Below, piece after piece: positions 5,250 to 49,624 of a stretch of 64,000 nucleotides of DNA; positions within the stretch are counted from its first letter, which is position 1; every line of letters starts with the position of its first letter. The translations under genes and the position numbers were made by a program. The DNA comes from Escherichia coli (GTDB lineage: Bacteria; Pseudomonadota; Gammaproteobacteria; Enterobacterales; Enterobacteriaceae), in the NCBI RefSeq assembly GCF_003334355.1, contig NZ_QOWP01000006.1; one strand, given 5' to 3'. Below the pieces are notes generated by a model. That model searched no databases. It was not told where the DNA came from and worked only from the letters and a program-made list of their open reading frames with translations.

Positions 5250-5291
5250 GTCATACCACTCGCCTGATTATTTTTAGCTATGTTGGATTTT

Positions 5292-5318
5292 GCCACGGTT
5301 TATACCGTGGCTTTTTTT
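5292..5318 (+). terminator. Rho-independent terminator of allDCE operon
   Basis: GCCACGGT-TTAT-ACCGTGGC hairpin followed by TTTTTTT. Confidence 0.7.
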
Positions 5319-5326
5319 GTAACATT

Positions 5327-18378: not shown

Positions 18379-18441
18379 TGGGCGGTATTCTGAAACGGCG
18401 ATTGTCGTGAGAACAGAATGGTTGCACCAGAATACAGATAT

Positions 18442-18478
18442 AAAAAAACCGACATGACAGTCGGTTTTTTTATTTTTT
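18442..18478. terminator. Bidirectional rho-independent terminator (selU on +; candidate sRNA on -)
   Basis: AAAAAAA-ACCGAC-ATGACA-GTCGGT-TTTTTTTATTTTTT; A-tract before and T-tract after the hairpin. Confidence 0.75.
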
Positions 18479-18530
18479 CCGCCCAAGACTTGGTGGTTCC
18501 GGGCAGAAATGAAACAGTCCTCATCTAGCA
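18442..18530 (-). ncRNA. Candidate antitoxin sRNA (~88 nt); its 5' end is antisense to a 16-nt element that recurs in the toxin leader
   Basis: Minus-strand promoter (-35 TTGAAT, 17-bp spacer, -10 TATAAT) puts the start near 18529-18533; transcript begins with the reverse complement of CAGTCCTCATCTAGCA (18515-18530) and ends at the bidirectional terminator. Confidence 0.4.
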
Positions 18531-30541: not shown

Positions 30542-33046
30542 ATGTCACAAACTATCGACCTGACCCTGGACGGCCTGTCCTGCGGTCACTGCGTTAAACG
30601 CGTGAAAGAAAGTCTTGAACAGCGCCCGGATGTGGAACAAGCGGATGTGTCTATCACTGAAGCGCACGTTACCGGGACTGCCAGTGCAGAACAGCTGATC
30701 GAAACCATCAAACAAGCGGGTTATGACGCATCTGTAAGCCACCCAAAGGCTAAACCGCTGGCGGAGTCATCAATCCCGTCGGAAGCACTGACAGCGGTTT
30801 CTGAGGCGCTTCCGGCAGCGACCGCCGATGACGATGACAGCCAGCAGTTGCTGCTGAGCGGCATGAGCTGCGCCAGCTGTGTCACCCGCGTACAAAATGC
30901 GCTGCAAAGCGTACCGGGCGTCACTCAGGCACGGGTAAACCTGGCGGAGCGTACTGCGCTGGTGATGGGCAGTGCCTCCCCACAAGATTTAGTGCAGGCG
31001 GTGGAAAAAGCGGGCTACGGTGCGGAAGCGATTGAAGATGACGCTAAACGCCGCGAGCGCCAGCAAGAAACCGCCGTAGCTACGATGAAGCGCTTCCGCT
31101 GGCAGGCAATTGTTGCACTGGCTGTGGGTATCCCGGTAATGGTCTGGGGGATGATCGGCGATAACATGATGGTCACCGCTGACAACCGCAGCTTGTGGTT
31201 AGTTATCGGCCTGATAACCCTGGCAGTGATGGTTTTCGCCGGCGGCCATTTTTACCGCAGTGCATGGAAAAGCCTGCTGAACGGTGCAGCGACGATGGAT
31301 ACGCTGGTGGCGCTGGGAACGGGTGTGGCGTGGCTCTATTCGATGAGCGTCAACCTGTGGCCGCAGTGGTTCCCGATGGAAGCGCGGCATCTTTACTATG
31401 AAGCCAGTGCGATGATTATCGGTCTGATTAATCTCGGCCATATGCTGGAAGCGCGCGCACGTCAGCGTTCTTCTAAGGCGCTGGAGAAATTACTCGATTT
31501 AACCCCACCGACGGCGCGAGTGGTCACCGCAGAGGGTGAAAAAAGCGTGCCGCTGGCGGAAGTTCAGCCAGGGATGTTACTGCGCCTGACGACCGGCGAT
31601 CGCGTGCCGGTAGATGGCGAGATTACCCAGGGCGAAGCATGGCTGGATGAAGCGATGCTGACGGGCGAACCAATCCCACAGCAAAAAGGCGAAGGCGAAA
31701 GCGTCCATGCCGGGACAGTGGTACAGGACGGCAGTGTGCTGTTTCGTGCCAGTGCGGTTGGCAGCCATACCACGCTGTCACGGATCATTCGCATGGTGCG
31801 CCAGGCCCAGAGCAGCAAGCCAGAAATCGGTCAGCTGGCGGATAAAATCTCAGCCGTATTTGTACCTGTGGTGGTGGTGATTGCGCTGGTCAGTGCGGCA
31901 ATCTGGTACTTCTTTGGTCCGGCACCGCAAATTGTTTATACCCTGGTGATTGCCACCACGGTACTGATTATCGCCTGTCCGTGTGCGCTGGGGCTGGCGA
32001 CGCCGATGTCGATTATTTCCGGCGTCGGGCGGGCGGCTGAGTTTGGCGTGCTGGTGCGGGACGCCGACGCGCTGCAACGCGCCAGTACACTCGATACCGT
32101 CGTGTTCGATAAAACCGGGACGCTGACCGAAGGGAAGCCGCAGGTTGTCGCAGTGAAAACGTTTGCTGATGTTGATGAAGCGCAGGCATTGCGTCTGGCG
32201 GCGGCACTGGAGCAAGGTTCCAGCCATCCGCTGGCACGGGCGATCCTCGATAAAGCAGGTGATATGCAGCTGCCGCAGGTCAACGGTTTCCGCACATTGC
32301 GCGGGCTGGGCGTGAGCGGTGAAGCTGAAGGTCATGCGTTATTGCTGGGCAATCAGGCGTTGTTAAATGATCAGCAAGTCGATACTAAAGCGATTGAAGC
32401 CGATATTTCAGCTCAGGCATCGCAAGGGGCAACGCCTGTGCTGCTGGCGGTTGACGGGAAAGCGGTAGCCCTGCTGGCAGTACGCGATCCGTTGCGTAGT
32501 GATAGCGTGGCGGCGCTGCAACGCCTGCATAAAGCGGGATATCGTCTGGTGATGTTGACCGGGGATAACCCAACCACCGCCAATGCGATCGCCAAAGAAG
32601 CCGGGATTGATGAGGTGATAGCCGGGGTGCTGCCGGACGGTAAAGCCGAAGCGATCAAACGTCTGCAAAGTGAAGGACGTCAGGTGGCAATGGTGGGCGA
32701 CGGCATTAACGATGCGCCAGCGCTGGCCCAGGCAGATGTCGGCATTGCAATGGGCGGCGGCAGTGATGTTGCCATTGAAACCGCGGCGATTACCCTGATG
32801 CGCCATAGCCTGATGGGCGTTGCGGATGCGCTCGCTATTTCCCGCGCAACGCTGCGCAACATGAAGCAGAACCTGCTCGGTGCCTTTATCTACAACAGCA
32901 TCGGTATTCCGGTCGCCGCCGGTATTTTGTGGCCGTTTACTGGAACACTGCTTAACCCGGTAGTTGCCGGAGCGGCAATGGCGCTCTCGTCGATTACCGT
33001 AGTGAGTAACGCCAACCGGTTGCTGCGGTTTAAACCGAAGGAATAA
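30542..33046 (+). CDS. copA: Cu(I)-translocating P1B-type ATPase CopA (834 aa)
   Basis: Two N-terminal GxxCxxC metal-binding domains, [16 protein letters not shown] motifs. Confidence 0.97.
30742..30754 (+). other. copA: Programmed -1 ribosomal frameshift site giving 70-aa CopA(Z) copper chaperone
   Basis: Slippery heptamer C CCA AAG at 30742-30748 (codons 68-69); -1 frame reads CCC AAA GGC TAA. Confidence 0.8.
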
Positions 33047-33103
33047 GTACGTCATTGCGGATGCGCTGCTTTAGGGCGGCGCATTTGGCATCGACGCATG
33101 ACT

Positions 33104-33238
33104 GCCGGATGCGGCGTGAACGCCTTATCCGGCCTACGGTTCAGGCACAAGTTTGTAGGCCTGATAAGACGGGTAAGCGTCGCATCAGGCAATGGTGCTC
33201 GGATGCCGGATGCGGCGTGAACGCCTTATCCGGCCTAC
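33104..33238. repeat. BIME cluster: three REP units in alternating orientation between copA and ybaQ
   Basis: GCCGGATGCGGCGTGAACGCCTTATCCGGCCTAC twice, flanking an inverted GTAGGCCTGATAAGACGGGTAAGCGTCGCATCAGGC. Confidence 0.85.
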
Positions 33239-33260
33239 GAGATGAAGCGATGTTTTGGCC

Positions 33261-33602
33261 TTACGCGACCTTTTTTGCACGCTCTTCACGGCGTGCCAAA
33301 TATTCAGCCACTGTTTCAATCCGTCCCAATTCTTCCTGGGTGCGCAGGTTGTTTTCAACTTCCCAAAGATCAACCGCCGCCTGGAGGTTTAGCCAAAAAT
33401 CGACTGTGGTATCAAAAACTTTCGCCAGACGAAATGCCATCTCAGTAGTGAGTTTACGATTGTTATTGATCAGTGCACTGACGCTATTACGATGAACATG
33501 CAGCAACTCTGCTAACTCATTGATTTTCAAATCGAGCGGTTCCAGATATTCATAGAGAAGAATATCTCCGGGTGTCGTCGGTTTTCTTGTTGCCTGTTTC
33601 AT
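33261..33602 (-). CDS. ybaQ: XRE-family HTH protein YbaQ (113 aa; HigA-antitoxin-like)
   Basis: ORF contains MKQATRKPTTPGDILLYEYLEPLDLKINELAELLHV... Confidence 0.85.
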   Translation of the reverse strand: MKQATRKPTTPGDILLYEYLEPLDLKINELAELLHVHRNSVSALINNNRKLTTEMAFRLAKVFDTTVDFWLNLQAAVDLWEVENNLRTQEELGRIETVAEYLARREERAKKVA

Positions 33603-33739
33603 GGTTTTTAACTGTTGCTTCCTTGTGAATAGCGATGCAAGAACATACTGAATCATACAAACACATTAAACAAGTCTCCAACTCCATTTGCGCCATCCCT
33701 CACCGCGCGCTAGCATGATATTTCACAAAGGGAGGTCGT

Positions 33740-34534
33740 ATGGATCTGTTGTACCGGGTAAAAACGCTTTGGGCCGCGCTGCGCGGTAATCATTACACCT
33801 GGCCTGCCATCGATATCACCCTCCCCGGCAATCGCCATTTTCATCTGATTGGCAGTATTCATATGGGTAGCCACGATATGGCTCCCCTGCCCACCCGTTT
33901 GCTCAAAAAGCTCAAAAACGCCGATGCGCTGATCGTCGAGGCGGATGTTTCCACCAGCGATACGCCTTTTGCTAATTTGCCTGCCTGCGAGGCGCTGGAA
34001 GAGCGCATTAGCGAGGAGCAACTCCAAAACCTGCAGCACATTAGCCAGGAGATGGGCATTTCTCCCTCACTCTTTTCTACCCAACCGCTGTGGCAAATCG
34101 CGATGGTTCTTCAGGCGACGCAGGCACAAAAACTGGGGCTGCGGGCAGAATACGGTATCGATTACCAGCTATTGCAGGCGGCGAAGCAACAACATAAACC
34201 CGTGATTGAACTGGAAGGGGCTGAAAACCAGATTGCCATGTTGCTCCAGCTCCCTGACAAAGGACTGGCGCTGCTGGACGATACGCTGACCCACTGGCAT
34301 ACCAACGCACGGTTGCTGCAACAAATGATGAGCTGGTGGCTGAATGCACCGCCGCAAAATAATGATATAACGCTGCCCAATACGTTCAGTCAGTCGCTGT
34401 ACGATGTGCTGATGCATCAGCGAAATCTCGCCTGGCGGGATAAATTACGCGCCATGCCGCCGGGGCGATATGTGGTCGCGGTCGGTGCACTACACCTGTA
34501 TGGAGAAGGGAATTTGCCGCAAATGTTGCGCTAA
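33740..34534 (+). CDS. ybaP: TraB-family protein YbaP (264 aa)
   Basis: 264-aa ORF divergent from ybaQ. Confidence 0.85.
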   Translation: MDLLYRVKTLWAALRGNHYTWPAIDITLPGNRHFHLIGSIHMGSHDMAPLPTRLLKKLKNADALIVEADVSTSDTPFANLPACEALEERISEEQLQNLQHISQEMGISPSLFSTQPLWQIAMVLQATQAQKLGLRAEYGIDYQLLQAAKQQHKPVIELEGAENQIAMLLQLPDKGLALLDDTLTHWHTNARLLQQMMSWWLNAPPQNNDITLPNTFSQSLYDVLMHQRNLAWRDKLRAMPPGRYVVAVGALHLYGEGNLPQMLR

Positions 34535-34616
34535 AAAAATGGCCAATATCGCTATTGGCCCGTCAAAGAGGAATTTCATTTTTTTATTATTATGCCGTCA
34601 CTTTAAGCGACGGTGT
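34533..34616 (-). ncRNA. chiX: ChiX (MicM/SroB) Hfq-dependent sRNA, ~84 nt
   Basis: Minus strand reads ACACCGTCGCTTAAAGTGACGGCATAATAATAAAAAAATGAAATTCCTCTTTGACGGGCCAATAGCGATATTGGCCATTTTTTT, matching recalled ChiX; ybaP-ybaK intergenic as in K-12. Confidence 0.85.
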
Positions 34617-40292: not shown

Positions 40293-40376
40293 GTAGGCAT
40301 GATAAGACGCGCCAGCGTCGCATCAGGCATCGAGAGCCAAATGCCAGATGCGGCGTGAACGCCTTATCTGGCCTAC
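40293..40376. repeat. REP pair between convergent ybaL and gsk
   Basis: GTAGGCATGATAAGACGCGCCAGCGTCGCATCAGGC and GCCAGATGCGGCGTGAACGCCTTATCTGGCCTAC. Confidence 0.8.
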
Positions 40377-47692: not shown

Positions 47693-49624
47693 TCAAATGG
47701 GGCGGATACTGTCTTCATCCAGCTCCGCATCGAAGAATCGACGCAGGGTCTGAATATTATTATCCGCAATAATGGACTCGCGCGCCTGCGCAAGTTTTTC
47801 TTCGTATATCGCCTGACGCCATTCCAGCGGCGTACGCACCGCGGGATTATCATCTTCAACGATAGTCAGTTCAACCGTTGAACCTTTTAACGTGCTCAAC
47901 GCTTCAGCCAGTTTTTGCTGTGCACCGCGGTTGTTCAAATGCCGCTGAGAGGTGCGCAAATGCAGACATACTGCGTTGTCGCTCTCCTCTTTCCAGGCAT
48001 TTAAGGCCACCTGTTCGACCAGTTTTGGTAGCGAAAGTTGGCTAACCTGTGCCGCCCACGCGTCGCGCTCAATGGCTTCTGCCGCCAGCTTCGCCGCCAG
48101 TTCCGGCGTTTTTTCATGTTCCAGCGCTTTTTTCAGCGCCTTCGGCGTGGCGACCACTTCTTTTTGCTGCATCACCGGAGTGGTCGCCTTCCAGCGATAC
48201 GCTTCTTTTTTAGCTGGCGCTTTTTCCAGCGCCGATGGCACCGGACGCGCCTGAACGCGATCGGTGACCGAAGCCAGTCTTTCCAGCGCAGCGTTATTCA
48301 CCGGCCGCGCGCGGGTAGCGGCTGCCGGTTCACTCTTTTTTGCTTTGGTTGCTCCCTGCACGCGCTGCAACTGCTGGCGCGCCGCCAGCACCTGGCTGGT
48401 GGTTTCCGGGAGCGGTACAGTCGGAGCCTGCTGCGGCGCTGATTGCGGTTGCGGCGGCACCTGGGTTGGCGTCATTACTGCCGTTGGTGCGACAGGTGCA
48501 AAGGACTGGCGTGGCACTTCTGGCTCAGGCAGCGGCATACGCGGATGGAATGCCAGCGCGCGCAGCAGCGTCATCTCAACGCCCATGCGGCGGTCCGGCG
48601 CATACGGTAATTCTTTGCGACCAATCAACAGCGTCTGATAGTAAAGCTGAATATCCGTCGGCGGTATGGTGCGCGCCAGTTCACGCATCCGCAGCTCGAT
48701 GGCGGCCATGTCGTTGCCAAGTGCAGCAGGCGAAAGTTGTACCATCGCAATACGATGCAACAGACCGAGCATTTCCACCAGCAACGCTTCCCACTCGATA
48801 CCACGGGCAGCGGCTTCATTAATCAGCGCCATTACGCGCTCGCCGTTGGCCTCGACCATCGCTTCAACCAGCGACAGCGCCTGATCGTCGTCAAGCGTAC
48901 CCAGCATCGCACTGACCGCCTGGGTTGAAACCTGGCCGTCACCGCTGGCAATCGCCTGGTCGGTCAGACTTAAGGCATCTCGCAGGCTGCCTTCAGCGGC
49001 GCGCGCCAGCAATTGCAACGCCCGCGGCTCGTGAGCGATATGTTCTTCGTTGAGGATGTGCTCAAGCTGATGGCGAATTTGCTCGACATCCAGCGCCTTG
49101 AGATGAAATTGCAGACAGCGTGACAAAATCGTCACCGGCAATTTCTGTGGATCGGTCGTCGCCAGCAGAAACTTAACGTGCTCCGGCGGCTCTTCAAGGG
49201 TTTTTAACAGTGCGTTAAAGCTGTGGCGCGACAGCATATGCACTTCGTCGATCAGATAAACTTTGAAACGACCACGCGCCGGAGCGTACTGGACGTTATC
49301 CAGCAGGTCGCGGGTATCTTCAACTTTGGTGCGCGAGGCGGCGTCGATTTCAATCAGATCGACAAAGCGCCCCTGCTCGATTTCACGACAGTTATCGCAC
49401 ACGCCGCACGGCGTCGCGGTAATGCCGGTTTCGCAGTTTAGCCCCTTCGCCAGCAGTCGGGCGATAGAGGTTTTTCCGACGCCACGGGTGCCGGAAAAAA
49501 GATAAGCATGATGAATACGCCCTAACGACAAGCCGTTCGCCAGTGCGGTCAGCACATGTTCCTGGCCGACGACGTCAGCAAAGGTTTGTGGGCGCCATTT
49601 TCGGGCTAAGACCTGATAACTCAT
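47693..49624 (-). CDS. dnaX: DNA polymerase III tau subunit DnaX (643 aa); gamma made by frameshift
   Basis: AAA+ Walker A GTRGVGKTS; 643 aa. Confidence 0.97.
   Translation of the reverse strand: MSYQVLARKWRPQTFADVVGQEHVLTALANGLSLGRIHHAYLFSGTRGVGKTSIARLLAKGLNCETGITATPCGVCDNCREIEQGRFVDLIEIDAASRTKVEDTRDLLDNVQYAPARGRFKVYLIDEVHMLSRHSFNALLKTLEEPPEHVKFLLATTDPQKLPVTILSRCLQFHLKALDVEQIRHQLEHILNEEHIAHEPRALQLLARAAEGSLRDALSLTDQAIASGDGQVSTQAVSAMLGTLDDDQALSLVEAMVEANGERVMALINEAAARGIEWEALLVEMLGLLHRIAMVQLSPAALGNDMAAIELRMRELARTIPPTDIQLYYQTLLIGRKELPYAPDRRMGVEMTLLRALAFHPRMPLPEPEVPRQSFAPVAPTAVMTPTQVPPQPQSAPQQAPTVPLPETTSQVLAARQQLQRVQGATKAKKSEPAAATRARPVNNAALERLASVTDRVQARPVPSALEKAPAKKEAYRWKATTPVMQQKEVVATPKALKKALEHEKTPELAAKLAAEAIERDAWAAQVSQLSLPKLVEQVALNAWKEESDNAVCLHLRTSQRHLNNRGAQQKLAEALSTLKGSTVELTIVEDDNPAVRTPLEWRQAIYEEKLAQARESIIADNNIQTLRRFFDAELDEDSIRPI
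48301..48354 (-). other. dnaX: dnaX programmed -1 frameshift cassette (A AAA AAG, downstream stem-loop, upstream AGGGAG)
   Basis: Plus strand shows CTTTTTT at 48335-48341; palindrome CCGGCCGCGCGCGGGTAGCGGCTGCCGG at 48301-48328; -1 frame gives ...KKE then UGA. Confidence 0.85.

Follow-up and report, generated by a model that had tools for sequence, protein, structure and literature searches.

Where did the partner of a solitary antitoxin gene lie, and how was it lost? The gene ybaQ raises this question in the 64-kb stretch of Escherichia coli DNA analysed here (hereafter, the window). A preliminary description had read ybaQ as a solitary antitoxin-like regulator standing beside an array of three REP units, that is, a BIME, and had suggested that the BIME may mark the place from which a partner gene disappeared. 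The core of the answer is already known: YbaQ was listed as a solitary antitoxin in 2007 (RASTA-Bacteria; PMC2374986), and work of 2020-21 identified and tested the lost partner, higB-1. With a probability of roughly 0.9, we conclude that ybaQ is an orphan left behind when the higB-1 toxin gene upstream of it was lost, and that the BIME is unrelated to this loss.

ybaQ encodes a HigA-family antitoxin that has no toxin gene beside it

The genes around ybaQ are arranged in the order copA, ybaQ, ybaP, ybaK and ushA, and the coordinates of the features discussed here are collected in Table 1. The position of ybaQ, the length of its product and the 137-bp gap to the divergent ybaP had been described correctly to the base.

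Table 1. Features surrounding ybaQ in the window.
Feature	Position	Strand	Basis and remarks
copA, copper-exporting P-type ATPase	30542..33046	+	834-aa ORF; copA annotation throughout the matching E. coli records; convergent with ybaQ
Hairpin just past the copA stop	33056..33090	+	RNA fold; alignments of allele states
REP unit 1, Y-type	33104..33137	+	0 mismatches to Y consensus
REP unit 2, Z-type, inverted	33155..33190	-	0 mismatches to Z pattern
REP unit 3, Y-type	33205..33238	+	0 mismatches to Y consensus; with unit 2, 101-bp Z-Y period
ybaQ, HigA-family XRE-HTH antitoxin/repressor, without toxin here	33261..33602	-	113 aa; TIGR02607, HTH_3, PDB 2EBY
ybaQ-side stretch specific to orphan alleles, 76 nt	33603..33678	-	Alignments, promoter scan, operator search
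Stretch 5' of the ybaP start codon (presumed promoter/leader)	33679..33739	+	Common to all allele states, partly to Citrobacter
ybaP (TraB/GumN family), divergent neighbour	33740..34534	+	ORF listing and annotation
sroB (Rfam match), directly downstream of ybaP	34533-34616	-	

Compared with NCBIfam, YbaQ scores 105.3 bits for the equivalog TIGR02607, 'HigA family addiction module antitoxin' (cutoff 47.7); its residues 6-84 align to positions 2-80 of the 81-position profile. Residues 16-70 match the Pfam domain HTH_3 (PF01381; 1.6e-10), which identifies an XRE/Cro-type helix-turn-helix protein. The solved YbaQ structure (PDB 2EBY) is a single residue apart from the window protein (L86 in the window, M86 in the structure), and VapI, GraA and a number of HigA proteins follow as the next-best solved relatives. 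The earlier assignment of ybaQ as a homologue of HigA-type antitoxins is thus well supported. The same annotated protein, WP_000806442.1, occurs both in strain no107, in which the toxin-antitoxin (TA) pair is intact, and in the orphan-bearing strains G8 and ECJXMCRH7, the window copy differing from it by M86L. A longer reading of the gene, as a 131-aa ORF starting from an ATG at 33656, was rejected because the family match gains nothing from the extension and this ATG falls inside a predicted -10 element.

As the preliminary description had stated, no toxin ORF adjoins ybaQ, whether sought by ORF listing, by tblastn or by HMM. The search for degraded toxin remnants that it had proposed was carried out on the whole window: a HigB-1 family HMM built from 15 homologues and run with filters off against the six-frame translation gave no match at E<=100. 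A complete type II TA system consists of a toxin gene and an antitoxin gene, and the window holds the antitoxin alone.

Other Rfam matches in the window are the dnaX frameshift element (48296-48360), STnc480 (5256-5322), AgrB (18440-18528) and the sroB match at the end of ybaP, which we take to be the sRNA ChiX. These elements look ordinary for E. coli.

An intact HigB-1/YbaQ pair occupies the same locus in other E. coli

A 1-kb (1001-bp) query spanning the locus matched all 5426 complete E. coli genomes and sorted them into distinct states. The orphan junction found in the window is present in 3567/5426 genomes (66%), and a spacer containing a toxin gene lies at the copA-ybaP locus in 1266/5426. 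The 5' end of ybaQ is present in 4834/5426 genomes, so that about 592 (~11%) have no ybaQ.

Strain no107 (L001) illustrates the intact state. Its ybaQ (1705-2046) and a gene for a 100-aa toxin (2082-2384) are both on the minus strand and separated by 35 bp, and the toxin gene adjoins ybaQ on its upstream side, between ybaQ and ybaP. The toxin is annotated as a member of the RelE/ParE family, matches PF05015 (HigB-like_toxin) over its full length with 111 bits and has Pseudomonas putida GraT as its closest solved relative (6F8S_B, 4e-15). On the copA side of ybaQ, the stop codons of copA and ybaQ are only 57 bp apart in TA-intact E. coli (L001), which leaves no room for a gene there.

This arrangement is the HigB-1/YbaQ module described in B2/F E. 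coli by Rousset et al. (bioRxiv 10.1101/2020.05.25.114553): the locus is the same, the allele is orthologous and YbaQ is one residue apart in the window. Compared with that module, the window lacks higB-1, the operator-promoter and the native Shine-Dalgarno sequence, and it carries a three-REP BIME that TA-intact alleles lack. In the same study, ybaQ was essential in 5 of 18 strains, these being B2/F strains with higB-1 upstream; knockdown of ybaQ de-repressed higB-1 in S88, a YbaQ motif was found in the higB-1 promoter, and higB-1 was truncated in CFT073. The toxin was reported to be missing from most phylogroups, including that of K-12, and phylogroup D to have lost both genes. Our genome counts and the anatomy of the locus agree with these reports and extend them.

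Toxin, operator and native ribosome-binding site are replaced by 76 nt

In a global alignment of the 137-bp spacer of the window with the 470-bp TA-intact spacer, the common part is confined to the 61 nt proximal to ybaP. At the other end, alignments show that homology between the window and the TA-intact allele ends ~10 nt ahead of the ybaQ ATG, which means that the native ybaQ Shine-Dalgarno sequence was lost as well. A stretch of 76 nt (33603-33678) therefore stands in place of higB-1, its promoter-operator and this native Shine-Dalgarno.

The operator itself was derived from the aligned toxin upstream regions of 14 close TA-linked loci (L020 was left out), after a generic inverted-repeat search had missed it. 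These regions share a conserved promoter-operator, GCAC-N4-GCAC-N-GTGC-N4-GTGC, that overlaps the -35 and -10 elements; in a fuller reading, GCAC-TTG(N)-GCAC-N-GTGC-N4-GTGC-(N)-TAnnAT, it comprises four half-sites with two-fold symmetry. The window contains no match to GCAC-N4-GCAC-N-GTGC-N4-GTGC at <=3 mismatches, and ybaQ thus has no such operator at a promoter of its own. When the orphan-specific stretch (76-82 nt) was compared with 15 TA loci by local alignment, the scores did not exceed those of shuffled sequences, and no toxin remnant was found in it. An ungapped match seen by eye, ACTTGTTTAATGTGTTTGTATG against ACTTGTGCACAGTGCTTATGTG, lies at the right position for a decayed operator; it is without statistical support and we do not claim it. 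The promoter scan gave a sole promoter-like match for ybaQ, with a -35 element at 33680-33675 and a -10 element at 33657-33652, and this match (9/12) is at chance level. Expression of the orphan from this predicted promoter (33680-33652), whose match is at chance level and which is no longer accompanied by the native Shine-Dalgarno, is accordingly only putative.

Near-identical orphan spacers, differing by few substitutions, are found in the window and in L004, L005 and L009, which are Escherichia genomes standing as separate GTDB species representatives. The sharing of one spacer suggests that the orphan junction arose only once. The alleles of these three genomes are toxin-less while B2/F E. 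coli keep the toxin, and simple vertical loss would therefore require either an old polymorphism or recombination. We also considered that the 76 nt might be the ancestral copA-ybaP spacer and, on comparison with Citrobacter, rejected this, since the spacer there is a REP pair and homology begins only just upstream of ybaP.

The following course of events is very likely. In Escherichia, the module between copA and ybaP consists of a promoter/operator followed by higB-1 and then ybaQ, a chromosomal toxin-first type II TA operon. In the lineage of the window, 76 unrelated nt would have taken the place, in one event, of higB-1, its promoter, the operator with its four half-sites and the ribosome-binding site native to ybaQ, thereby orphaning ybaQ; all toxin-less alleles examined have one common junction. 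The source of the 76 nt is without a match, and the loss may have proceeded by deletion plus insertion or by recombination. The orphan YbaQ can probably still bind DNA and act as an antitoxin, with no toxin encoded in cis, given that the protein matches, exactly or nearly so, the antitoxin by which HigB-1 is neutralised and repressed in TA-intact strains. The three-REP BIME is an ordinary array of variable copy number, separate from the loss of the toxin.

YbaQ homologues at other loci are paired with an upstream toxin

A scan of species-representative genomes returned 14 ybaQ homologues outside the copA-ybaP locus, in Trabulsiella, Citrobacter, Enterobacter, Kluyvera, Sodalis, Erwinia, E. albertii, other Escherichia and one Caldilineaceae MAG. 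At all 14, a homologue of HigB-1 lies directly upstream on the same strand, and the toxin precedes the antitoxin at 15/15 TA-linked loci examined. The same scan gave three matches at copA-ybaP in Escherichia, all toxin-less like the window. The idea of a lost partner had been held open to refutation should ybaQ homologues never be toxin-linked in any genome, and a synteny comparison had been proposed as the check. That comparison finds a higB-like neighbour at 14/14 loci elsewhere and in 1266/5426 E. coli at copA-ybaP itself.

Among these loci, the HigB-1 homologue of Enterobacter sp. Bisph1 (L013) is frameshifted. In E. albertii NBRC 107761 (L019:2590-2635), five tandem copies of ATGACCA stand where the higB-1 homologue has its start codon and create several ATGs that differ in frame, and the related copies L010 and L024 have two units only; the tract could be a slippage tract that affects translation of the toxin.

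Relatives of the module also occur on mobile elements. Approximately 100 enterobacterial plasmids carry toxins at least 60% identical to HigB-1, and many of these plasmids are 75-90 kb in length and come from E. coli and Salmonella. In the E. coli phage-plasmid NZ_CP076307.1 (L024; 86.8 kb), the TA pair lies at 1501-2212, between phage tail and baseplate genes. Its toxin is 79% identical to HigB-1, its antitoxin is 77% identical to YbaQ over the aligned 105 residues, and the GCAC/GTGC operator is present.

Orphan ybaQ as a possible relic or a possibly useful gene

Loss of ybaQ from the locus has occurred by at least two independent routes, deletion (L002) and replacement by an interspersed repeat (L003). 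In Escherichia sp. E1V33, the copA-ybaP copy (L009:3001-3342) is frameshifted after residue 93, and this genome has a second, intact HigB-1/YbaQ module elsewhere (L010). Together with the ~592/5426 genomes that have no ybaQ and the disappearance of the native operator and Shine-Dalgarno, these losses and the L009 frameshift are what would be expected of a functionless relic drifting towards loss. We consider this reading possible though doubtful, as it has to be set against an ORF that is intact in six full-length orphan alleles examined, including that of L004 (pS up to 0.17 relative to other alleles), and against pairwise pN/pS values of ~0.1-0.2 among orphan alleles, with 0-13 substitutions per pair. 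In addition, ChIP-exo of chromosomally tagged YbaQ in K-12 gave peaks that yielded a motif (PMC6237786).

The same values of pN/pS, and the presence of the orphan in 66% of genomes, would also suit a gene kept because it is useful, either as a putative anti-addiction or immunity factor against HigB-1/YbaQ modules of phage-plasmids or as a regulator recruited to other chromosomal genes. On the side of immunity are the relatives carried by ~100 enterobacterial plasmids, the 79%/77% identity of the copy on the 87-kb E. coli phage-plasmid, the occurrence of the same GCAC/GTGC operator in phage-plasmid copies, and the identity of the orphan protein with a working antitoxin (WP_000806442.1). Regulation of other genes would be in keeping with Gao et al. 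(2018; PMC6237786), who found YbaQ among six confirmed transcription factors for which a palindromic motif was obtained from ChIP-exo peaks in K-12, a toxin-less strain; other functions of YbaQ have also been proposed by Rousset et al. (bioRxiv 10.1101/2020.05.25.114553). We nevertheless judge that usefulness is rather unlikely to be the explanation, for ~11% of E. coli do without ybaQ altogether, L009 carries the frameshift and L022 the substitution W69R, the substitutions are few, and recombination with TA-intact strains could mimic constraint.

A specific form of usefulness, which from sequence comparison we can put forward only tentatively and regard as improbable, is that orphan YbaQ serves in immunity or anti-addiction: by binding the GCAC/GTGC operator of incoming phage-plasmid modules and neutralising their toxin, it would weaken their post-segregational hold.

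The sequence that stands in place of ybaQ at copA-ybaP in E. coli MLI106K1 (L003:1648-2010) is ~363 nt long and is found in 350 E. coli genomes. Its core of ~270 nt is a GC-rich, hairpin-full and unannotated interspersed repeat that occurs in all 5426 E. coli genomes, with a median of 3 copies per genome at 91-95% identity; another copy lies between aqpZ and lysO. Its sole Rfam match, to TwoAYGGAY, is sub-threshold (27.5 bits against 43).

The REP array varies independently of the toxin

The array downstream of ybaQ had been described as 135 bp of three REP units, and this holds in full: across 33104-33238, Y(+), Z(-) and Y(+) units follow one another without a mismatch. The Y consensus is matched 5 times in the window, where shuffles give an expectation of 0, and copies of the Z-type are also found elsewhere in the window. 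The REP region folds far more strongly than shuffled sequences do (z = -5.7), and the Z-Y pair at 33158-33235 matches Rfam naRNA4 (RF02564) with 79.9 bits, above the gathering score (59.5). A second naRNA4/BIME lies at 40296-40373. The units of ~35 nt alternate between Y and Z, are extragenic and multicopy and vary in copy number, as is characteristic of a BIME; a 1001-bp query containing the BIME has a median of at least 33 match places per E. coli genome. Known here from its sequence, the array resembles described BIME/REP arrays, including REP325/naRNA4 (RF02564), in its alternating Y/Z units, its position in a spacer between convergent genes, its multicopy nature and its variable number, and has nothing distinctive about it.

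Between the array and copA lies the hairpin that follows the copA stop, likely the stem of the copA terminator; a terminator scan found no T-tract terminator at 33056-33090. This hairpin is common to REP-less alleles too, and in the alignments its 3' arm is the point at which REP-bearing and REP-less alleles diverge. Beyond it, the number of REPs between copA and ybaQ ranges from none in the TA-intact no107 and the toxin-less L004, through one in MEI008 and L005 and three in the window and L009, to five in G8 (K-12; judged by its 409-bp span) and seven in ECJXMCRH7. At this spacer the window, with 3 REPs, therefore differs from a K-12 laboratory strain, with 5 apparent, and does not correspond to K-12 MG1655 here.

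Among the matches listed, REPs are missing from every TA-intact locus and present at nearly every orphan locus, a correlation that is best read as linkage on one haplotype. L004 provides a toxin-less allele without any REP. Moreover, the copA-ybaP locus of Citrobacter is an empty site, in which copA is followed by 153 bp and then ybaP, and this spacer is a REP pair: in Citrobacter freundii (L028:2348-2500 and L029:2348-2500) the inverted pair comes right after copA, with no ybaQ at the locus. REPs thus seem to have reached the 3' end of copA independently in two genera. The REP-less L004, the position of the toxin on the other side of ybaQ and the Citrobacter REPs after copA together show that the BIME is not a scar of toxin loss. 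It is a REP array of the ordinary, unstable kind, lying where the 3' ends of the convergent copA and ybaQ meet, and is independent of that loss.

The suggestion that the BIME marks a lost partner accordingly fails on position, for the site of the toxin is on the ybaP side of ybaQ and the BIME is on the opposite, 3' side. What stands of the earlier interpretation is that ybaQ is a solitary antitoxin and that its partner was lost, as the 1266/5426 intact alleles indicate; what falls is the BIME as the site of loss. That a partner toxin once lay downstream of ybaQ and was replaced by the BIME is barely conceivable, since this reading has the correlation between REPs and toxin-less alleles in its favour and is already refuted by gene order (toxin upstream at 15/15 TA-linked loci), quite apart from the 57 bp between the copA and ybaQ stops in TA-intact E. 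coli, the absence of both toxin and REPs from L004, a REP number of 1, 3, 5 or 7 that follows a period of 101 bp, the REPs after copA in Citrobacter, where ybaQ was never at the locus, and the lack of any toxin-like translation in the window.

Relation to known systems

In GraTA, the operon has a toxin-first order and the HTH antitoxin is folded throughout; in HigBA of Rts1/Proteus vulgaris and of CFT073, the gene order is reversed. The higBA pair of E. coli K-12 (ygjN/ygjM) is a separate locus. GraTA of Pseudomonas putida (PDB 6F8S, 6F8H) supplies the closest solved toxin to HigB-1 (GraT, 4e-15) and one of the closest solved antitoxins (GraA, ~5e-10). The sequence kinship is distant, and YbaQ has a C-terminal tail of ~30 residues beyond the 81-position TIGR02607 core; unlike GraTA, the window has no toxin. 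The antitoxins of HigBA Rts1/Proteus vulgaris (PDB 4MCT, 4MCX) and CFT073 HigA (PDB 2ICP, 2ICT) belong to the same TIGR02607 family (E 3e-9 to 4e-6), and the intact E. coli allele likewise has a PF05015 toxin, but the ybaQ module represents a different subfamily with a different operator.

Although the significance of these observations beyond published work is little, several points are added here. The site of the toxin is opposite the BIME, the operator and Shine-Dalgarno were lost along with the toxin at a junction that appears to be of single origin, and the BIME, with its variable copy number, is an array independent of that loss. Finally, phage-plasmids carry close relatives of the module, and the question of why the orphan is kept thereby becomes testable as an anti-addiction hypothesis.
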